From Escherichia coli O127:H6 str. E2348/69 (lineage in GTDB: Bacteria > Pseudomonadota > Gammaproteobacteria > Enterobacterales > Enterobacteriaceae): DNA of 64,000 bases. Both the position numbers and the translations under genes were made by a program. The stretch lies in assembly GCF_000026545.1 (NCBI RefSeq), contig NC_011601.1. The stretch is one strand, 5' to 3'. Position 1 is the first letter of the stretch. Every line of letters begins with the position of its first letter. Below, piece by piece: positions 7,623-59,801 of this stretch. The notes beneath the pieces were generated by a model that saw only the letters and a program-made list of their open reading frames with translations, ran no database searches and was not told the DNA's origin.

Positions 7623-9770
7623 TTACGCCAGTGCCGCTTCGCGCAGGCGAGTTTTCAACTTGTTGTACTCGTCAATCACGTACTGCTCGGCGGCGCGCTG
7701 ATCGGCGATCGGCTCGACGCGCACGGCGCAGTATTTGTATTCCGGCGTTTTCGTAATCGGGCTTAAGTTTTCGGTAACCAGCTCGTTACAGGCACCAATC
7801 CACCACTGGTAGGTCATGTAAATCGCCCCTTTGTTCGGACGATCGCTGACCTGCGCACGGGTGATAATTTTGCCTTTACGCGAGTGCACCCAAACCAATG
7901 CCTCATCTTCAATACCCAGACGTTTGGCGTCTTCGGTATTGATTTGTGCGTAGCCAGGTTCATCAGCCAGCGCCGCCAGTGCCGCACAGTTACCGGTCAT
8001 CGAACGGCAAGAGTAGTGACCAACTTCACGCACCGTTGACAGTACCATCGGGTACTCGTCGGTGAGTTTGTCGATTGGCGCGACCCAGTCGCAGGTGAAG
8101 AACTGCGCCAGACCGTTCGGGGTATCAAACTTCTCTTTAAACAGATAAGAAGTCCCCTGATCGGCATCTGAAGTATCCCGGCAAGGCCACTGAATGAAGC
8201 CCAGTTCGCCCATTTTTTCGTAAGTCGCACCGTAGAAATCCGGGCACAGATGACGCAACTCATCCCAGATCTCCTGGGTGTTGTTGTAGTGCATCGGATA
8301 ACCCATACGGGTGGCGATTTCACTGATAATCTGCCAGTCCGTTTTCAGATCCCATTTCGGTTCAACCGCTTTGAAGAAACGCTGGAAGCCACGGTCAGCC
8401 GCAGTAAACACGCCTTCATGCTCGCCCCACGACGTTGACGGTAAAATAACATCCGCCGCCGACGCGGTTTTGGTCATAAAGATGTCCTGAACGATGACCA
8501 GTTCCAGATCTTCAAAGGCTTTACGTACTGCCGACAGCTCCGCGTCAGTTTGCAGCGGATCTTCGCCCATAATGTACGCGGCACGCACTTCGCCATGCGC
8601 TGCGCGGTGCGGCAGCTCGCTGATGCGATAGCCGGTATGAGCAGGCAGGCTTTCCACGCCCCAGGCTTTGGCGAATTTCTCGCGGTTAGCCGGATCTTTC
8701 ACGTACTGGTATCCCGGATACGTATCCGGCAGCGCGCCCATATCGCAGGCACCCTGCACGTTGTTCTGACCACGAACCGGGTTTACACCCGCATGCGGCT
8801 TACCGAGGTTACCAGTCAGCATCGCGAGGCTGGTCAGAGAACGCACGGTTTCCACGCCCTGGTAGAACTGGGTTACACCCATGCCCCACAGGATGGCGGC
8901 GCTTTTCGCCTGGGCATACATCCGCGCCGCCTGACGAATCTCACTGGCGCTGACGCCGGTGATATCTTCAACCGACTCCGGCGTGTAGCCTTCAACGATT
9001 TTACGATACTCTTCAAAGCCTTCTGTACGGGAAGCGACGAAAGCTTTGTCGTACAGGTTTTCTTCAATAATGACATGGCCCATCGCATTCAACAGCGCGA
9101 TGTTCGAGCCGTTTTTCAGTGCAATGTGCATGTCAGCAATGCGCGCGGTTTCAATTTTGCGCGGATCGCAGACGATAATTTTCGCCCCGTTACGTTTAGC
9201 GTTAATTACGTGATTCGCCACGATTGGGTGGGAATCCGCCGGGTTGTACCCGAAAACGAACACTAAATCGGTATTATCAATTTCGTTAATAGCATTGCTC
9301 ATTGCGCCATTACCGACCGATTGGTGCAGACCTGCAACCGATGGGCCGTGTCAGACACGAGCGCAGCAGTCAACGTTATTGGTACCAATAACGGCGCGCG
9401 CAAATTTTTGCATTACATAGTTGGTTTCGTTACCCGTACCACGCGAGGAGCCGGTCGTCTGGATGGCATCCGGACCGTACTTCTCTTTGATGGCGCTCAG
9501 GCGCTCGGCAACGTAATTCAGTGCCTCATCCCAGGAAACAGGTTCGAGTTTGCCGCCACGCTGGCGACGGATCATGGGGGTTTTCAGGCGCGGGGTCAGG
9601 ATCTGGGTATCGTTAATGAAATCCCAGCCATAATAACCCTTCAGACACAGGGTACCCTGGTTGGTTTTCCCCTGCGCTGCCTCCGCCCGGACGATTTTGC
9701 CGTTATCGACGACCAGGTTGATTTTGCAACCTGATGCGCAATAGGGGCAAACCGTGACGACTTTTTTCAT
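7623..9770 (-). CDS. fdhF: Formate dehydrogenase H, selenocysteine-containing molybdoenzyme
   Basis: Track ORFs 9351..9770 and 7623..9302 are in the same frame across a single TGA; 716 codons total; N-terminal Cys cluster CPYCASGCK. Confidence 0.95.
9305..9353 (-). other. In-frame UGA selenocysteine codon (9351..9353) with downstream SECIS region
   Basis: TGA flanked by ...DCCARV and HGPSVAGLHQSVGNG...; bacterial SECIS elements lie immediately 3' of the UGA. Confidence 0.85.
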
Positions 9771-33526: not shown

Positions 33527-33614
33527 TAGGCCGGATAAGGTGCTTGCACCGCATCCGGCATCAACGTCTGCACATTGTCGGATGCGACGCCGGGGCGTCT
33601 TATCCGACCTACGA
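33527..33614. repeat. Pair of REP units between phnD and phnE
   Basis: gtaggccggataagg...gcatccggca and gtcggatgcgacgcc...ttatccgacctac. Confidence 0.7.
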
Positions 33615-36085: not shown

Positions 36086-36165
36086 AGCCTGATAAGACGC
36101 GGTCAGCGTCGCATCAGGCAGTCGCCACCGTTGCCGGATGCGGCGCGAGCGCCTTATCCGGCCTA
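36086..36165. repeat. Pair of REP units between yjdN and yjdM
   Basis: gcctgataagacgc...gcatcaggc and gccggatgcggcgc...ccttatccggcctac. Confidence 0.7.
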
Positions 36166-41828: not shown

Positions 41829-41838
41829 CAATTGAACT

Positions 41839-41855
41839 CTTAAGGTTCACTTAAT
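41839..41855 (+). promoter_or_regulatory. PmrA (BasR) box upstream of pmrR
   Basis: CTTAAG-N5-CTTAAT direct repeat, ~45 bp upstream of pmrR ATG. Confidence 0.65.
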
Positions 41856-41899
41856 CTCTGACGCGCATACTCTCCTCCAGGTTAACGGAGGAGAGTGCA

Positions 41900-41989
41900 A
41901 TGAAAAACCGTGTTTATGAAAGTTTAACTACCGTGTTCAGCGTGCTGGTGGTCAGCAGCTTTCTTTATATCTGGTTTGCCACGTACTGA
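41900..41989 (+). CDS. pmrR: Small membrane peptide PmrR (29 aa)
   Basis: ATG preceded by GGAGGAG; MKNRVYESLTTVFSVLVVSSFLYIWFATY is a single TM helix; not in the ORF track (<60 aa). Confidence 0.75.
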   Translation: MKNRVYESLTTVFSVLVVSSFLYIWFATY

Positions 41990-43056
41990 TCTTTTTTCAG
42001 CCGTATACAGGCCCGCGTGCCGGAAGTCTCTTGCCGGTTTTGCAGGAAAAAATGCCCGTGATGCAACTGTGTAATGCGGCTGACAATACTTAACCCCAGA
42101 CCAATCCCGCCATAACGGCTGTCCATTCGTACAAACGCTTTACTCAACTCCCCGCATTTACTCTCATCAATACCCGGTCCTTCATCTTCAACGGCCATGA
42201 CCGCTCCGCCATCTTCTTGCAGCTTAATCATAATGTTGCTGCCTTGTGGGCTATAACGATGGGCGTTTTCTACCAGGTTTCGCAATAACATCCGCAGCAG
42301 GGTTGCATCACCCTGAACGGTGATGTCGGCGGCGCTCTCTGGCAATAGCAGGGTTTGCTGGCGCTGGTCGAGCATGGTACTAAGTTCGTCATACGAGGGG
42401 AGAATGACATCTTCCAGCAGTTTTACATGTTGATAATTACCGGAAGAAAATGACTGTCCGGCACGCGCCAGTTGCAGCAGCTGGGAGACGCTCTCCATCA
42501 TCTGATCAAGTCGTGCCACTAACGGTGCTACATCAATGTGATGCGTTTTCGCCAGCAGTTCCAGATGCAAACGCACCCCCGCCAGTGGCGTTCGCAGTTC
42601 GTGCGCGACGTCAGCGGTAAACAACCTTTCGTTATCCAGCGTGCTGGTCAGGCGACTGACCAGATCGTTTAACGCCGAAACCACCGCATCGATTTCGAGG
42701 GTGGCGCTATGAATGGCAATGGGCGTTAAGTTGTCGGCGGTGCGCGCTTCCAGCTCTTTTTGCAGCTCCGCCAGCGGTCGGGTGATGCGGCGTACCGCCT
42801 GATAGCAGATAAATAGCGTCAGGCTAACCATAAAGACGCCGGGGACAATCAGGCTGGCGACCGCCTCGCGGATCTCACGCATGATGTGGCGATCGTTGTT
42901 GCGATTGTCGCGTAACGCCTGCTCAAACAGCTGAATCTGCTCGGTACTTTCATGCCATAGCCAGAAGACGCTGATCAGCTCGAATACCAGCAGAATAGCC
43001 CCAATGGTCAATATCAGCCGTTGACGTAGTGATATTGGTTGGCGTAAAAAGCGCAT
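41965..43056 (-). CDS. basS: Sensor histidine kinase BasS/PmrB
   Basis: HAMP, HisKA (H-box AHELRTP) and ATPase domains; start taken 3 codons inside the track ORF. Confidence 0.9.
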   Translation of the reverse strand: MRFLRQPISLRQRLILTIGAILLVFELISVFWLWHESTEQIQLFEQALRDNRNNDRHIMREIREAVASLIVPGVFMVSLTLFICYQAVRRITRPLAELQKELEARTADNLTPIAIHSATLEIDAVVSALNDLVSRLTSTLDNERLFTADVAHELRTPLAGVRLHLELLAKTHHIDVAPLVARLDQMMESVSQLLQLARAGQSFSSGNYQHVKLLEDVILPSYDELSTMLDQRQQTLLLPESAADITVQGDATLLRMLLRNLVENAHRYSPQGSNIMIKLQEDGGAVMAVEDEGPGIDESKCGELSKAFVRMDSRYGGIGLGLSIVSRITQLHHGHFFLQNRQETSGTRACIRLKKDQYVANQI

Positions 43057-51693: not shown

Positions 51694-53049
51694 ATGATGT
51701 CTGCACCCAAAATTACATTTATCGGCGCTGGTTCGACGATTTTCGTTAAAAATATTCTTGGTGATGTGTTCCATCGTGAGGCGCTGAAAACGGCGCATAT
51801 TGCCCTGATGGATATCGATCCCACCCGCCTGGAAGAGTCGCACATTGTGGTGCGTAAGCTGATGGATTCAGCAGGGGCCAGCGGCAAAATCACCTGCCAC
51901 ACCCAACAGAAAGAAGCCTTACAGGATGCCGATTTTGTGGTGGTGGCATTTCAGATTGGCGGTTATGAACCTTGCACGGTGACTGATTTCAAGGTCTGTA
52001 AGCGGCATGGTCTGGAACAAACCATTGCCGATACGCTGGGGCCGGGCGGCATTATGCGTGCGCTACGTACCATTCCGCACCTGTGGCAGATTTGCGAGGA
52101 CATGACGGAAGTCTGCCCCGATGCCACCATGCTCAACTATGTTAACCCAATGGCGATGAATACCTGGGCGATGTATGCACGCTATCCGCATATCAAGCAG
52201 GTAGGGCTGTGCCATTCGGTGCAGGGAACGGCGGAAGAGCTGGCGCGTGACCTCAATATCGATCCGGCTACGCTGCGTTACCGTTGCGCAGGTATCAACC
52301 ATATGGCGTTTTACCTGGAACTGGAGCGTAAAACCGCAGACGGTAGCTACGTGAATCTCTATCCTGAATTGCTGGCGGCTTATGAAGCAGGGCAGGCACC
52401 GAAGCCAAATATTCATGGTAATACTCGCTGCCAGAATATTGTGCGTTACGAAATGTTCAAAAAGCTGGGCTACTTCGTCACAGAATCGTCAGAACATTTT
52501 GCTGAGTACACACCGTGGTTTATTAAGCCAGGTCGTGAGGATTTGATTGAGCGTTATAAAGTACCGCTGGATGAGTACCCGAAACGCTGCGTCGAGCAGC
52601 TGGCGAACTGGCATAAAGAGCTGGAGGAGTATAAAAACGCCTCCCGGATTGATATTAAACCGTCACGGGAATATGCCAGCACAATCATGAACGCTATCTG
52701 GACTGGCGAGCCGAGTGTGATTTATGGCAATGTCCGTAACGATGGCTTGATTGATAACCTGCCACAAGGATGTTGCGTGGAAGTGGCCTGTCTGGTTGAT
52801 GCTAATGGCATTCAGCCGACCAAAGCCGGTACGCTACCTTCGCATCTGGCCGCCCTGATGCAAACCAACATCAACGTACAGACGCTGCTGACAGAAGCTA
52901 TTCTTACGGAAAATCGCGACCGTGTTTACCACGCCGCGATGATGGACCCGCATACTGCCGCCGTGCTGGGCATTGACGAAATATATGCTCTTGTTGACGA
53001 CCTGATTGCCGCCCACGGCGACTGGCTGCCAGGCTGGTTGCACCGTTAA
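51694..53049 (+). CDS. melA: Alpha-galactosidase (GH4, NAD/Mn-dependent)
   Basis: 451 aa; N-terminal Rossmann motif KITFIGAGS. Confidence 0.93.
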   Translation: MMSAPKITFIGAGSTIFVKNILGDVFHREALKTAHIALMDIDPTRLEESHIVVRKLMDSAGASGKITCHTQQKEALQDADFVVVAFQIGGYEPCTVTDFKVCKRHGLEQTIADTLGPGGIMRALRTIPHLWQICEDMTEVCPDATMLNYVNPMAMNTWAMYARYPHIKQVGLCHSVQGTAEELARDLNIDPATLRYRCAGINHMAFYLELERKTADGSYVNLYPELLAAYEAGQAPKPNIHGNTRCQNIVRYEMFKKLGYFVTESSEHFAEYTPWFIKPGREDLIERYKVPLDEYPKRCVEQLANWHKELEEYKNASRIDIKPSREYASTIMNAIWTGEPSVIYGNVRNDGLIDNLPQGCCVEVACLVDANGIQPTKAGTLPSHLAALMQTNINVQTLLTEAILTENRDRVYHAAMMDPHTAAVLGIDEIYALVDDLIAAHGDWLPGWLHR

Positions 53050-53696
53050 GGGGTAATCGCTTCCGGCGCTCTGGTGATTAAGCCAAAGCGCCGTAGCTGG
53101 CGGCAATGAAAGCGGGCGAGGAATATCACCGTCGTTAATGCGCCCAGTAGTGCGCAGAACATATCGGATTGCGTATCCCACGGGTCGCCTTGAGTACCGA
53201 GAAAATCATCTGCGCCCTGGCCCATTGCCAGCGCTGCCCACCACTCGATTAACTCATACATCGCGCTTATCGCCAGCGCGACACAACAGACCAAAAACGC
53301 CACCATTTTACGCCCGCGAACGTACATCCCGCGTACAAGGATCTCTCGTGCCACCAGTGCAGGCACCAGCCCCTGGAAAAAATGCCCCAGTTTGTCATAC
53401 GGATTACGGCTCAACCCCAGCCATTCCTGTACCTCAAAACCAACGGGGACTTTCGCGTAGGTGTATTGCCCGCCGACCATCAGGATGATGGCGTGAAAGA
53501 AAATGAGCGTATAGAGCAGCGGCGTTAACGGATAACGTTTAGCGGTGGCAAGCAGTAGCGGCACGACAATAATCACCGGTGTCACTTCCATCAGCCAGGT
53601 GAGTTTGTCATGGGCCGAAATGCCGGTATAAATCAGGATTAACGTTAGCGCCAGTGCGCCGGTGTTAAGAATTAACGGCTTGAGTGTGCGGGTCAT
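53046..53696 (-). CDS. yjdF: Inner membrane protein YjdF
   Basis: 216 aa polytopic membrane protein; stop codon overlaps the melA stop convergently; C-terminal tail may be junction-derived. Confidence 0.8.
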   Translation of the reverse strand: MTRTLKPLILNTGALALTLILIYTGISAHDKLTWLMEVTPVIIVVPLLLATAKRYPLTPLLYTLIFFHAIILMVGGQYTYAKVPVGFEVQEWLGLSRNPYDKLGHFFQGLVPALVAREILVRGMYVRGRKMVAFLVCCVALAISAMYELIEWWAALAMGQGADDFLGTQGDPWDTQSDMFCALLGALTTVIFLARFHCRQLRRFGLITRAPEAITP

Positions 53697-53818: not shown

Positions 53819-55465
53819 TTACTTAGTGCAGTTCGCGCACTGTTTGTTGACGATCTGCTGGAAGAAGTCGTTACCTTTGTCATCGACCAGGATAAACGCC
53901 GGGAAATCTTCTACTTCGATTTTCCAGATAGCTTCCATACCCAGCTCCGGATAAGCGACGCATTCCAGATGCTTGATGCTCTGCTGCGCCAGTACCGCCG
54001 CCGGACCGCCGATACTACCGAGGTAGAAGCCGCCGTGTTTATGGCACGCGTCGGTAACCTGCTGACTGCGATTACCTTTCGCCAGCATGATCATGCTGCC
54101 GCCGTGGGATTGCAGCAGATCCACGTAGGAGTCCATACGACCTGCGGTGGTTGGGCCAAGTGAACCTGATGGATAACCGGCAGGCGTTTTCGCCGGACCC
54201 GCGTAGTAGATCGGGTGATCTTTGATGTACTGCGGCAGTTCTTTACCGGCGTCAATCAGCTCTTTCAGCTTGGCGTGTGCAATATCGCGACCCACGATAA
54301 TGGTGCCGGTGAGCGACAAGCGGGTGGATACCGGGTATTGCGAAAGCTGGGCAAGGATCTCTTTCATCGGGCGGTTAAGGTCGACTTTCACTGCTTCGCC
54401 TTCACCTGCCTGACGCAGTTCTTCTGGAATGTACTGGCCTGGATTGTGTTCCAGTTTTTCGATCCAGATACCTTCGCGGTTGATTTTCGCTTTAATGTTA
54501 CGGTCAGCGGAGCAGGAGACTCCCATGCCTACCGGGCAGGATGCGCCGTGACGTGGCAGACGGATAACGCGGATGTCGTGCGCGAAGTATTTACCGCCAA
54601 ACTGCGCGCCAAGACCGAGTTTCTGGGCCTCTTCCAGCAGTTCCTGTTCCAGCTGGATATCGCGGAACGCCTGACCATGTTCGTTCCCTTCCGTCGGCAG
54701 TTCATCGTAATAGTGAGCGCTTGCTAACTTGACGGTTTTCAGGTTGGTTTCCGCAGACGTACCGCCAATCACAAACGCGATATGGTACGGCGGGCAGGCT
54801 GCAGTACCGAGGGTACGCATTTTCTCGACGAGGAAGTTTTTCAGTTTGCCGGGCGTCAGCAGGGCTTTGGTTTCCTGGTAGAGATACGTTTTGTTGGCAG
54901 AGCCGCCGCCTTTAGCGACACAGAGGAATTTGTACTCATCGCCATCTACCGCGTACAGGTCGATTTGCGCAGGCAGGTTCGTGCCGGTGTTGACCTCTTT
55001 ATACATGTCCAGCGGCGCGTTCTGTGAATAGCGCAGGTTATCTTCGATATAGGTGTTATAGACGCCTTTCGACAGCGCTTCTTCATCACCGCCCCCGGTC
55101 CACACGCGCTGACCTTTTTTACCGACGATGATCGCGGTGCCGGTATCCTGGCAGGTCGGCAGCACGCCTTTGGCGGCGATTTCGGAGTTTCTTAAGAATT
55201 GCAGCGCCACGTACTTGTCGTTTTCGCTGGCTTCTGGATCGTGAAGAATAGCCGCAACCTGTTTCTGGTGTGCCGGGCGGAGCATGAAAGAAGCGTCGTG
55301 AAAGGCTTGCTGCGCCAGCAGGGTCAGGGCTTCTGGTTCCACTTTCAGGACGGTTTCGCCGTCGAAGTCGGCAACGCTAACGTAATCGGAAGTGAGTAGA
55401 TAGTATTCGGTATTGTCTTTCCCCATCGGGAAAGGTGCCTGGTAGATAAAGGGTTTGTTTGACAT
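53819..55465 (-). CDS. fumB: Class I (Fe-S) fumarate hydratase, anaerobic
   Basis: 548 aa. Confidence 0.95.
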
Positions 55466-55542
55466 AGCTTCCAGCCTGTAACTCTGTATTTGTTATTTGA
55501 AAATGGCGTGCCGCGTAGTTACGGGCGGCACGCAAAGTGCAT

Positions 55543-56883
55543 TTATAAGAATCCGTACATCGCGGCGAAGATCCAGCCGAAGACGCACGATACGCTCACA
55601 CCAATCAACCCCGGCAGAATAAAGCTGTGGTTGATGACGAAGCGACCGATGTGGGTGGTGCCGGAACGGTCAAACTGAATCGCTGCCAGATCGCTCGGAT
55701 AAGTCGGCAGGATGTAATAACCGTAGCAAGCCGGTGCTGAAGCCACGATGTATGCCGGATCAACGCCGATCGCCAGCGCGACCGGAACAATCGCCGCCAG
55801 CGCTGCAGCCTGAGAGTTTACAAACTTTGAAACCAGCAGCAGAACAATGGCATAGGCCCACGGATACTCTTTCACCATTTCACCCAGCACGCCCTGAATT
55901 TCAGACATATGCGCACCGAACATGGTTTCAGCCATCCATGCGATACCGTACACCGCCACGATGGCGATCATACCGGAACGGAAAACTTCGTTTTTTGAGA
56001 TAGACGCGGGATTGGTTTTGGTCAGGATAATAATCAGCGCCCCGGTCAGCAGCATAAACATCTGAATAACCAGTACCATCGACAGCGGTTTGCCGCCGAA
56101 GGATGGACGCAGGTCCGAATCAGCACCAAGAAGGGCGACTACAGCGATTGCCCCGAGGAAGATCCACATTGCCAGCCAGTTGCTTTTCGGCAGTTTTTTA
56201 TCGAGCAGCGTCGCGGTATCACCGTAAACATACTCACGGTTTTCCGGTACGGAGATGAATTTCTGGAACTCTTCGTCTTTATCCAGATCTTTACCGCGGA
56301 ACCAGCTGAAGATACCGATCGCCAGGATACCGATTAACGTCGATGGAATGGTGATTGCCAGCAGGTCGAGGAACTCAAGATGGCGACCATCAAAGGTGAC
56401 ATTACCCAGCATCGCAACCAAAGATACGACCGCAACCGACACCGGACTGGCGATAATCCCCATCTGTGCACCAATAGAACTTGCCGCCATCGGACGTTCC
56501 GGACGGATGTTGTTCTTAATAGCAACGTCGTAGATGATCGGCAGAATGGTGTAAACCACATGACCCGTACCGCAAAGAATGGTCAGCGTACAGGTCACAA
56601 ACGGCGCGACAATTGAGACATATTTCGGGTTGCGGCGCAGCAGCTTCTCGGCAATTTGCAGCATGACATCAAGACCGCCCGAAGCTTGCAAGGTCGCCGA
56701 TGCTGCCACCACCGCAATGATAACCAGCATGACATCAACCGGTGGTTTACCTGGCTGAAGGTGGAAGACGAAGACCAGAATGACCAGACCGATACCGCCT
56801 AATAAACCCAGCGCGATACCCCCCTTTCTGGCACCATAAAACAGACATATCAGTATTATGATAAGTTGGATAGTAAATAACAT
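55543..56883 (-). CDS. dcuB: Anaerobic C4-dicarboxylate antiporter
   Basis: 446 aa polytopic transporter. Confidence 0.95.
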
Positions 56884-57453
56884 GTGTGAACCCTCGCGAT
56901 AATCCTATTTAAATTTTTGCTGAATAGATCACAGTCACGTTCTGTTTTGTATGAACTGTTTTCAGAGCCTGACTAAATATCCGTTTGGTCGTTACCGGCT
57001 TGAGCAAATACCTCACAGTGAATATTGGCTGATTAAAGCAGCGGCAAATTTATGCACTGTGATAAGCGGCTTTTTCAGAGAGAAAGACTCTCTGGCGATG
57101 GGTTTATAGTTTGTACAGCGCAGATGTTAATGTTTTGTTTGCTGTTATCTTATTGATATTTATCGGTCTGTTTTTTGTTCTCAGGGCAGGTATCATTAGG
57201 TTTATAGATTAATCTGATCTACCCATTTGTGGGTAAAAATACACATAATGTGGGTGACATAATAGTTAATTAACTTTTGTTAGCGTTTTGAAATTAAAAA
57301 CACCGTTCATCTGAAGAGGTATTAATTTTTAGCGATGATGGAGGGATAATTATATTTGATCTGGCACAAGTTTTACTGATGAACGATGTAACTTGTGCCA
57401 GGGGTATTTTGCATTACGGTAATAATTATTACTTACAGATAACCAGCGATCCG

Positions 57454-58173
57454 TTATTGGCAATATTGTTTCAGTAGTGAGTAGTGTTCTGCCTGAATAC
57501 GGTAACGGTAAACCGGACGCCCCGTGACGCCATAATGGATACTGGTGAACAAGATGTGGCAGTTGACTAGCCAGATAAGGTATTTACGGCAGGAAACACG
57601 CGAGATGTTAACCTCGTTAGCCAGCTCGTCGGTTGAAAACTCATAGTCCTGATGCGCGTCAATCCACTGGCACAGCGTGCGTAACGTCTGCGGCGTTAAG
57701 CCTTTTGGCAAGCGACGAGGATCCTGCTCGTTGGAGCTGCTGCCGTGGATTAGCTGATCAAGCTCGGCCTGGTCATAATACTGATGTTTTTCCAGCGCCA
57801 TTTTCTTTTGCCGCCAGCCGGTGAGCGCCTCTTCAAAGCGGGAAGCCTGGAAGGGTTTGATCAGGTAATCCACAACACCGTAATGCAGCGAATCTTTGAT
57901 GGTTGCTGCATCGGCAGCGGAGGAGATGACAATCACATCACTTTTGCAACGCGCGTTATGCAGGACAGGCAGTAAATCGAGCCCGTTCTCTTTTTGCATA
58001 TAGATATCTAGCAATATCAGGTCGATAGGCGTATCGCTATTGAAGATAATCTCTTTGGCTTTCTCCAGCGTCGAAGCCGTTCCACAGCATTGAAAGCCCG
58101 GGATTTGTGCCACGTATCGGCGATTCAGCTCCGCGACCATTGCGTCGTCATCGATAATTAATACATTGATCAT
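57454..58173 (-). CDS. dcuR: C4-dicarboxylate response regulator
   Basis: 239 aa receiver plus HTH; 4-nt overlap with dcuS. Confidence 0.93.
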   Translation of the reverse strand: MINVLIIDDDAMVAELNRRYVAQIPGFQCCGTASTLEKAKEIIFNSDTPIDLILLDIYMQKENGLDLLPVLHNARCKSDVIVISSAADAATIKDSLHYGVVDYLIKPFQASRFEEALTGWRQKKMALEKHQYYDQAELDQLIHGSSSNEQDPRRLPKGLTPQTLRTLCQWIDAHQDYEFSTDELANEVNISRVSCRKYLIWLVNCHILFTSIHYGVTGRPVYRYRIQAEHYSLLKQYCQ

Positions 58174-59801
58174 CTGTTCGACCTCTCCCCGTCCCAGGGT
58201 ATCTGGACAAAAAATTGTGTGAAAATCCCGGGTTCCGATTCCACGGCGATGCTGCCGCCGAGATTTTCTACCTGTTGTTTGACAAGTGCTAAACCGACGC
58301 CTCGCTCGCTTCCTTTTGTCGAGACACCTTTGTCAAAAATGTGATCGATTTTGTCGGGTGCGATCCCCGGTCCATCATCGTTAACTTCGCAGTGCAGCCA
58401 GCCGTGACGGTAGTGCAATGTTACGCTAATTTCGCCACCGGGTTCCGGTCCTAATGCCTCCAGCGCGTTTTCTATCAGATTTCCCAACGTGGTAATCAGC
58501 GTCGCGACCTGATCCTCACTACCGCTGTCTGGCAGCTGGCTTTCACTGTTTAAAATTAGCGTATGGCCTAAATCGGTCGCGCGGTTAATCTTGCTGATTA
58601 AAAAACCAGCGATAACCGGAGATTTGATCTTACCCAGCAGAGAGCCAATCTCTTCCTGATAGTTATTGGCTGTTTTGAGAATGTAATCTTCCAACTGCTT
58701 ATAACTCTTCAGATGCAATAATCCGAGAATCACATGCAATTTATTCATAAATTCGTGGGATCGTTCACGAAGTGCGTCAGCATAGTTGACCAGACCGTCG
58801 AGTCGCTGCATCAGTTTACGTACTTCAGTTTTGTCCCTGAAGGTTGAAATGGCACCGATGATAACGCCATTACTGCGCACCGGAACGGTGTTGATCAGTA
58901 ATAGTCGGTCCTTAATCGTAATCTCTTCGTCGCGGCGTGGGGTTCCGTCGCGTAACACTTCCGAGACATCTACCACCTGTGACCACGAGTGGCTTAGCGT
59001 CGACAGTTTCTCATCGTCCTGCGACTTACGGTAATTCAGCAATTCTTGTGCGGCATCGTTGATCAGCGTGACCTCGCCGCGATCGTCCACGGCAACGACG
59101 CCTTCTTTGATGGACTGCAACATGGCCTGGCGTTGCTCAAACAGTGTGGAGATTTCGTAGGGTTCCAGGCCGAAAAGGATTTTTTTCAGTACGTTAACCA
59201 GAATGCAGGTGCCGATCAGTCCGACCAGCATGCCAAATAGTACCGACCAGATAATGCTCCAGCGACTGTCATTGATCTGTTGGGTCACGCGGCTTAACTC
59301 AAGGCCGATCGCCACCACGCCAATTTGTTTATGATTTTCATCGTAGATGGGGGTAAATACGCGTAAAGCCTGCGCCAGAAAACCGCGATTGATAGCGACA
59401 TTTTCTTCGCCATTCAGCGCTTTAAGGATGTCATCACCTTTAAATGGCTGACCAATACGCTGGGCTTCAGGATGCGAGTAGCGAAGACTGTGCATATCGG
59501 TAACGACAATAAACAGCAGATCGCTGCGTTTGCGCACGGCTTCCGCGATGGCCTGGATTCCACTCTCCTGCGGTTTTTTCTGCAAGCCCTGACGGATTTC
59601 TGGCGAGTCGGCGAGGGTACGCGCTACTGCCAGAGCCTTGTTAGCTAGCCCGTCTCGCGTCATGTCACTGATTTGCGAGAAGTAAATCAGATGCACCACC
59701 AATAGTACCGAGAACAGTACCGCGCTGACCATTAAGATCACAGTGGTACTCAATTTCATCGGACGTTTGCGTAACATACGGTAGGGCAATGAATGTCTCA
59801 T
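58170..59801 (-). CDS. dcuS: C4-dicarboxylate sensor histidine kinase
   Basis: 543 aa with periplasmic PAS, cytoplasmic PAS and kinase domains. Confidence 0.93.
   Translation of the reverse strand: MRHSLPYRMLRKRPMKLSTTVILMVSAVLFSVLLVVHLIYFSQISDMTRDGLANKALAVARTLADSPEIRQGLQKKPQESGIQAIAEAVRKRSDLLFIVVTDMHSLRYSHPEAQRIGQPFKGDDILKALNGEENVAINRGFLAQALRVFTPIYDENHKQIGVVAIGLELSRVTQQINDSRWSIIWSVLFGMLVGLIGTCILVNVLKKILFGLEPYEISTLFEQRQAMLQSIKEGVVAVDDRGEVTLINDAAQELLNYRKSQDDEKLSTLSHSWSQVVDVSEVLRDGTPRRDEEITIKDRLLLINTVPVRSNGVIIGAISTFRDKTEVRKLMQRLDGLVNYADALRERSHEFMNKLHVILGLLHLKSYKQLEDYILKTANNYQEEIGSLLGKIKSPVIAGFLISKINRATDLGHTLILNSESQLPDSGSEDQVATLITTLGNLIENALEALGPEPGGEISVTLHYRHGWLHCEVNDDGPGIAPDKIDHIFDKGVSTKGSERGVGLALVKQQVENLGGSIAVESEPGIFTQFFVQIPWDGERSNR

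Follow-up and report, generated by a model that had tools for sequence, protein, structure and literature searches.

The long intergenic region between dcuR and dcuB of Escherichia coli: a probable cis-regulatory region that combines a distal promoter with a leader predicted to mask the ribosome-binding site

Why does such a long AT-rich non-coding region separate dcuB from dcuR in Escherichia coli? The window considered here is a stretch of 64,000 nucleotides from E. coli O127:H6 str. E2348/69. On its minus strand, the genes follow each other in the order dcuS (58170–59801), dcuR (57454–58173), the gap, dcuB (55543–56883) and fumB (53819–55465). The whole dcuR-dcuB intergenic region (56884–57453, minus strand) is 570 bp long and has a GC content of about 35%, as delimited by both the open reading frame list and the RefSeq annotation. 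In 200-bp windows, its GC content is 31–39% versus about 50–55% in the flanking genes. It ranks first in size among the intergenic gaps of the window in the RefSeq annotation of E2348/69, the runners-up being crfC-yjdM (402 bp), fdhF-ABC transporter (374 bp) and rpiB-alsR (353 bp). The original prediction, made from this DNA alone, had described a 570-bp AT-rich region at 56884–57453 as the largest gap of the window, and its coordinates, length, GC content and size rank all agree with these data. It had also proposed that the gap holds a complex regulatory region and might hide a small gene. Taken as a whole, the data make it quite probable that the gap serves the dcuB-fumB operon as cis-regulatory region, that it contains no separate gene and that it associates a distal promoter with a leader that would mask the ribosome-binding site. 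Below, "up N" stands for the minus-strand position N nt 5' of the dcuB ATG, which is 56883 + N in window coordinates.

E. coli E2348/69 gives a match to the gap with 100% identity. The equivalent gap of K-12 MG1655 is also 570 bp long (NC_000913.3, 4348745–4349314) and differs from that of the window at 9 positions, and the region was found in 5411 of 5426 complete E. coli genomes. In E. coli S7 (NZ_CP107128.1; locus L086, 2266–2800), the gap is interrupted at about 270 nt 5' of dcuB, where it joins a truncated lambdoid gpFI gene; this junction points to a prophage-associated rearrangement that splits dcuR and the promoter from dcuB. The nearby mel region also has its own organization: melB is missing here, melA (51694–53049, plus strand) overlapping the end of yjdF (53046–53696, minus strand). 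In K-12, melB is located between melA and yjdF, and the annotated yjdF has 7 aa less.

One genome per species was scanned with DcuB, which gave 80 loci. The order dcuS-dcuR-gap-dcuB-fumB is retained in five genera, with gap lengths of 570 bp in Escherichia, 717–729 bp in Salmonella, 552–754 bp in Citrobacter, 630–633 bp in Trabulsiella and 910 bp in Intestinirhabdus. The GC content of the gap is 31–39% in four genera, Intestinirhabdus being the exception with 45%. The long gap is a conserved trait wherever the dcuS-dcuR-dcuB-fumB synteny persists. An alignment of 26 gaps displays six conserved blocks (A to F) separated by fast-evolving sequence. Block A (up 558–520; 57403–57441, minus strand) is found in the five genera and holds a perfect palindrome, GTAATAATTATTAC, at 57419–57432. 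Block B (up 486–473, minus strand) is the FNR site TTGTGCCAGATCAA. Block C (up 420–375, minus strand), with 46 nearly invariant bases, exceeds all other parts of the gap in conservation. Block D (up 362–336, minus strand) contains TACCCACAAATGGGTA. Block E (up 222–190, minus strand) consists of CCCATCGCC followed by a hairpin, and block F (up 70–1, minus strand) ends in the Shine-Dalgarno sequence GCGAGGG. Block C (the probable DcuR site) and the box and hairpin of block E are absent at DcuB orthologs without upstream dcuSR (Klebsiella, Raoultella, Proteus, Serratia, Pectobacterium, Dickeya and others), which restricts these elements to the dcuSR-dcuB-fumB arrangement.

Two other features lie at the dcuR end of the gap. 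Block A starts 12 nt past the dcuR stop codon and carries GTTAT/GTAAY repeats located 11 bp apart, an ArcA-like spacing. A perfect 12-bp inverted repeat, CTGGCACAAGTT / AACTTGTGCCAG, is found at 57361–57372 and 57390–57401, with 17 nt between its arms, one of which overlaps the FNR site. This repeat occurs in Escherichia only, and its role as a canonical dcuR terminator is ruled out, as no U-run follows it.

The upper part of the gap (about 223 bp) is a distal promoter under multiple controls. Its FNR site, TTGTGCCAGATCAA (57356–57369, minus strand), has the same sequence in K-12 and is kept across genera. A dcuB FNR ChIP-seq peak with the motif TTGATCTGGCACAA was reported at 4347240 in old K-12 coordinates (Myers 2013, PMC3688515); this motif maps to up 473–486. 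The frequency of the FNR motif in a motif scan is not above chance, so that the assignment is based on ChIP-seq together with conservation. The centre of the site is given as -132.5 from the transcription start (PMC3688515). As this centre lies 479.5 nt upstream of the ATG, the start would be located at up 347, i.e. at an A (57230, minus strand) 347 nt upstream of the ATG. An anaerobic sigma70 ChIP peak lies at about 4347120, i.e. about 353 nt upstream of the ATG (PMC3688515). The position -132.5 matches neither class II (near -41.5) nor class I (-61.5 and similar) promoters and is thus atypical for FNR activation. A class II FNR promoter starting about 436–438 nt upstream of the ATG was considered and rejected, as no conserved -10 element was found there. 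A second FNR-like motif, TTGATATTTATCGG (two mismatches), is located further downstream at 57153–57166, within the leader; it is poorly conserved and within chance expectation.

A weak -10 element, TATTTT (57236–57241, minus strand), lies 5 nt upstream of the putative +1. The distal promoter has no -35 element; instead, it carries block C, which ends 28 bp before the start. A consensus scan of the gap detected no sigma70 consensus promoter, as would be expected where promoters depend on activators; this result is therefore no argument against the mapped starts. Block C (57258–57303, minus strand), an AT-rich sequence of 46 bp that covers -28 to -73 of the distal promoter, is a probable DcuR binding site, as judged from its position and motif. 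Abo-Amer in 2004 reportedly found a new dcuB promoter together with a DcuR site located 27 bp 5' of it, and Janausch in 2004 is said to have described a DcuR footprint from -359 to -400 relative to the older dcuB start. Counted from the -20 start, the latter interval corresponds to up 379–420 and therefore to block C, which presumably is the footprinted sequence. The inverted heptamers TACCCACAAATGGGTA (57220–57235, minus strand), arranged as a NarL-type 7-2-7 element, span -5 to +11 of the distal promoter and differ by one mismatch from the NarL 7-2-7 consensus TACYYMT-NN-AKRRGTA. The pattern TACYYMTNNAKRRGTA, with at most one mismatch, has 2 matches in the 64 kb versus 0.16 expected. Both position and motif thus make TACCCACAAATGGGTA a candidate NarL operator.

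Evolution experiments in the mouse gut yielded recurrent mutations upstream of dcuB (PMC5094792). One of these gut-adaptive mutations, an A>T substitution at -354 (PMC5094792 supplement), changes the distal -10 element from TATTTT to TATTAT. The gut-selected insertions comprise IS2 at -359 and -338 and IS5 at -123 (PMC5094792); the two IS2 insertions flank the -10 element and cut the NarL site. These mutations fall precisely on the promoter elements described above and lend them independent genetic support. Anaerobic dcuB mRNA was assayed in a single clone, 22YFP, which has the IS2 insertion at -338, and was raised there (PMC5094792).

At the other end of the gap, a CRP-like site, TGTGATCTATTCAGCA (56918–56933, minus strand), is included in the proximal block F and is found across genera as TGTGATCCATTTATCA; it is a candidate by its resemblance to TGTGA-N6-TCACA. 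The ChIP-backed FNR site, block C, the NarL 7-2-7 element and this CRP-like site bear out the proposal of a complex region through which dcuB is controlled by anaerobiosis and C4-dicarboxylates. The scan for sites of the four regulators that had been suggested with this proposal recovered the motifs of FNR and NarL; it gave a CRP site by resemblance and a DcuR candidate by position.

With a regulated start at up 347, the 5' leader of the dcuB mRNA (56884–57230, minus strand; 347 nt) would take up about 61% of the gap. The counterpart leaders of other genera would have 309–574 nt. The unusual length of the gap would therefore reflect a distal promoter followed by a long leader, and not protein-binding DNA alone. 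This leader carries a putative anti-Shine-Dalgarno box, AA-CCCAUCGC (57095–57104, minus strand), whose core CCCAUCGC (57095–57102) is nearly invariant. Directly 3' of the box lies a 7-bp hairpin, CAGAGAG-UCUUU-CUCUCUG (57076–57094, minus strand). The distance from the hairpin to the ATG is 171–330 nt, mostly 204–218 nt. The Shine-Dalgarno sequence GCGAGGG followed by UU (56889–56897, minus strand) would be the 3' strand of a long-range helix with the box. It is invariant in the 26 sequences except for a C-to-U change in two Escherichia, in which a G-U pair is kept.

Pairing within the hairpin is kept despite sequence change: substitutions are compensatory in five of the seven pairs, and 91% of the cells of the alignment are paired. 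RNAalifold, applied with no constraint to the aligned sequences that extend from block E as far as the start codon, gave a consensus with three helices only, namely the hairpin, CCC-A-UCGC : GCGAGGG and one 3-bp helix. In the helix between the box and the Shine-Dalgarno sequence, 91.8% of the cells are paired, versus 30–61% when the partner columns are slid. Its 7-bp core is invariant and five of its nine pairs are without any change, so that these positions give no covariation signal. Of the two flanking pairs, one reads U-A in 18 sequences, with A-U instead in the 6 Escherichia; for the second, G-U occurs in 7 sequences, A-U in 4 and C-G in 2, the remaining 13 being unpaired. The covariation of the helix thus concerns only two flanking positions and few evolutionary events. 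In 17 of the 26 sequences, no other part of the leader complements the Shine-Dalgarno region as well as the box does.

Partition-function folds of full-length leaders (26 examined, from five genera) give the helix a probability of 0.50–1.00 in 24 species, although the approximately 190 nt that separate the two strands are divergent. The exceptions are two Citrobacter species (NCU1 and Awk4) with a weakened box. In silico mutation of the box raises the predicted probability that GAGGG is unpaired from a median of 0.03 to 0.40. Most likely, the leader forms a long-range anti-Shine-Dalgarno helix stacked on the hairpin, although a thermodynamic prediction over a range of 200 nt falls short of proof in vivo. 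As far as computation can tell, this helix would hold down translation from the long transcript. The literature searched contains no description of the box, of the hairpin or of their complementarity to the Shine-Dalgarno sequence.

The invariant box might just as well be bound, as DNA, by a protein. Regulation might then operate at the DNA level only, the box, the palindrome that forms the hairpin and the proximal 70-bp block all being sites for transcription factors or nucleoid proteins that act on the promoters, and the leader RNA being devoid of regulatory structure. The invariance of the box core is what a protein site would show, the region is AT-rich and dense with known regulator sites, and the proximal block carries a CRP-like motif. 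Such an organization is nevertheless rather unlikely, as compensatory changes in five of the seven pairs of the hairpin are atypical for a protein operator and as the complementarity between the box and the Shine-Dalgarno sequence is found in every genus, with clade-specific compensatory flanks. Furthermore, the element lies inside the transcript, well downstream of the distal start. The reading retained here is that of a leader whose RNA structure would mask the ribosome-binding site.

A second 5' end is located close to dcuB. A transcription start was known at -20 (Golby 1998) and was re-mapped at -19 (Mendoza-Vargas 2009, PMC2760140 table). This proximal 5' end (dcuBp1, -20/-19; 56902–56903, minus strand) might be a primary start or a processing site. 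It lies just 5' of the Shine-Dalgarno strand, so that in both cases the resulting mRNA would lack the inhibitory partner. It could be supposed that this end is the main promoter, that the FNR and DcuR sites act from 360–460 bp away by looping and that the gap is mostly untranscribed spacer. The older literature reportedly numbered the DcuR site from the -20 start, which would agree with such a scheme. This end was moreover mapped by two methods (PMC2760140). The scheme is nonetheless improbable in view of the anaerobic sigma70 peak about 353 nt upstream of the ATG and of the FNR position at -132.5 from the start (PMC3688515). In addition, the gut-selected point mutation improves the distal -10 element (PMC5094792) and the NarL 7-2-7 element overlaps the distal start. 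The proximal -10 and -35 elements are themselves poor and are not conserved outside Escherichia, including in Salmonella and Citrobacter. These data favour a regulated start at the distal promoter, with the proximal end as a possible source of short-leader mRNA.

The possibility of a hidden gene was examined by several approaches. A search of the whole window against Rfam 15 at the gathering score gave no match in the gap. At E<=10, the 56700–57650 interval gave only three spurious eukaryotic or viral matches (E 1.6–8.8), and no cis-regulatory family, riboswitches included, matched this interval. The other Rfam matches in the window are the STnc630 sRNA (41831–41996), two REP-derived naRNA4 (36086–36163 and 33529–33609) and the fdhF SECIS element (9304–9358). 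A terminator scan of 56884–57453 found no intrinsic terminator. Fifteen open reading frames of at least 12 aa were compared. None of those of the sense strand is intact in any of the 20 non-Escherichia sequences, those of 30–52 aa are intact in only 0–2 of the 5 other Escherichia, and no Shine-Dalgarno-like sequence precedes any of these. The gap is devoid of annotation in K-12, in E2348/69 and in 60 further E. coli records sampled down the full ranking of 5415 matching E. coli records. Term-seq tables, which cover aerobic cultures only, contain no entries for dcuB or dcuR (PMC7815308). Despite the length of the gap and the presence of several open reading frames of 13–52 aa on both strands, an independent small RNA or small protein gene, as considered in the original prediction, is thus highly improbable, since no Rfam family, intrinsic terminator, annotation or aerobic Term-seq entry (PMC7815308) points to one and the reading frames, without good Shine-Dalgarno sequences, are broken outside Escherichia and, for the long ones, also within this genus.

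The expression of dcuB from a distal promoter and a self-masking leader can be pictured as follows. An activator-dependent sigma70 promoter would start at 57230 and would be served by the approximately 223 bp located upstream, the DcuR site over -28 to -73 taking the place of a -35 element. Together, the FNR, DcuR, -10 and NarL elements would lead to anaerobic and C4-dicarboxylate induction and to nitrate repression. In the full-length transcript, the box would pair across about 200 nt with the Shine-Dalgarno sequence and would thereby keep the ribosome-binding site closed. Translation would then require that the helix be opened or removed. Relief might come from a shorter transcript or from processing at the -20 end, or from a trans-acting RNA. 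Gene order, conservation, the FNR ChIP site, the sigma70 peak, the -20 end and the adaptive mutations come from data or from the literature; the RNA-level part of this scheme we infer in its entirety from conservation and predicted folding.

One candidate for such a trans-acting RNA is the sRNA FnrS. Its nt 21–28, located in the loop of the first stem-loop, are a perfect 8-nt complement of CCCAUCGC, i.e. their sequence GCGAUGGG is the reverse complement of the box. In the Rfam consensus of FnrS, AAGCGAUG is highly conserved. The chance that a 122-nt RNA contains a perfect complement to a given 8-mer is about 0.2%, or about 1–2% after allowing for a handful of candidate sRNAs. An 8-mer match to FnrS anywhere in the leader has an expectation of about 0.6 and would be unsurprising. 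The comparison with FnrS was limited to exact k-mer complementarity; an RNAduplex comparison of the whole FnrS with the whole leader was discarded as uninformative, as shuffled FnrS scores equally well. A second match, AAAAAGCCG (57067–57075), lies directly 3' of the hairpin and is complementary over all its 9 nt to FnrS nt 111–119 (3' arm of the terminator and U-tail). It was judged to be due to chance, because it is of low complexity, buried in the terminator and unconserved.

The published mutants of FnrS alter nt 4–5, 47–49 and 57–59, and a single positive target, rseA, has been reported (PMC8595263). The loop that matches dcuB (nt 17–28) lies outside these mutated regions. No connection between FnrS and dcuB was found in the literature searched. 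RIL-seq of EPEC contains no chimeras in the dcuB leader, the only ones at dcuB being 24 RaiZ::dcuB-CDS chimeras, and a TRIC-seq preprint does not mention dcuB. For another sRNA, SdhX, a pairing with the dcuB-fumB spacer of Salmonella is predicted (this spacer is located here at 55466–55542). That FNR-induced FnrS would open the self-closing dcuB leader through its loop nt 21–28 is a speculative proposal with little chance of being right, drawn from base complementarity. If true, FNR and dcuB would form a coherent feed-forward loop, FNR acting directly at the promoter and through an sRNA that activates translation.

In anaerobic fumarate respiration, the main fumarate/succinate antiporter is DcuB, which also acts together with DcuS as a co-sensor. 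Its transcriptional inputs (FNR, DcuR, NarL and CRP) have been studied for 25 years, and no post-transcriptional control of dcuB is described in the literature searched. Its upstream region is repeatedly mutated when E. coli colonises the mouse gut (PMC5094792). As such, the region is ordinary and already explained; the leader element matches no Rfam family. If the leader masks the ribosome-binding site, this would account for the conservation of a long leader between Escherichia and Citrobacter and would add a checkpoint between transcription and the synthesis of a membrane protein that acts as both transporter and sensor. It may also explain why IS5, when inserted between the box and the Shine-Dalgarno sequence, is selected in the gut.

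The closest known counterpart is the rpoS leader, a long self-inhibitory 5' UTR that is opened by DsrA, RprA or ArcZ. Like that of rpoS, the dcuB leader would have several hundred nt, an upstream segment predicted to pair at a distance with the ribosome-binding site and a candidate Hfq-type sRNA for the upstream strand. Unlike that of rpoS, the dcuB helix is short (7–9 bp with one bulge) and comes from computation only, the sRNA candidate FnrS is suggested by an 8-nt match only, and there is a second 5' end with a short leader. The proposal for dcuB also resembles shiA/RyhB and rseA/RyhB-FnrS, in which an sRNA of the same regulon activates its target by disrupting a structure of the 5' UTR. 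Unlike the published work on FnrS, the match to dcuB involves the loop nt 17–28, outside the mutated regions. As for dcuB itself, Golby in 1998, Abo-Amer in 2004, Janausch in 2004 and Myers in 2013 reportedly placed the gene under activation by FNR and DcuR, repression by NarL and control by CRP, with two 5' ends. The sites mapped here agree in place with this published architecture, in which the region appears to be treated as promoter DNA. The promoter level of dcuB control is thus already known, and the predicted leader element is the new part.
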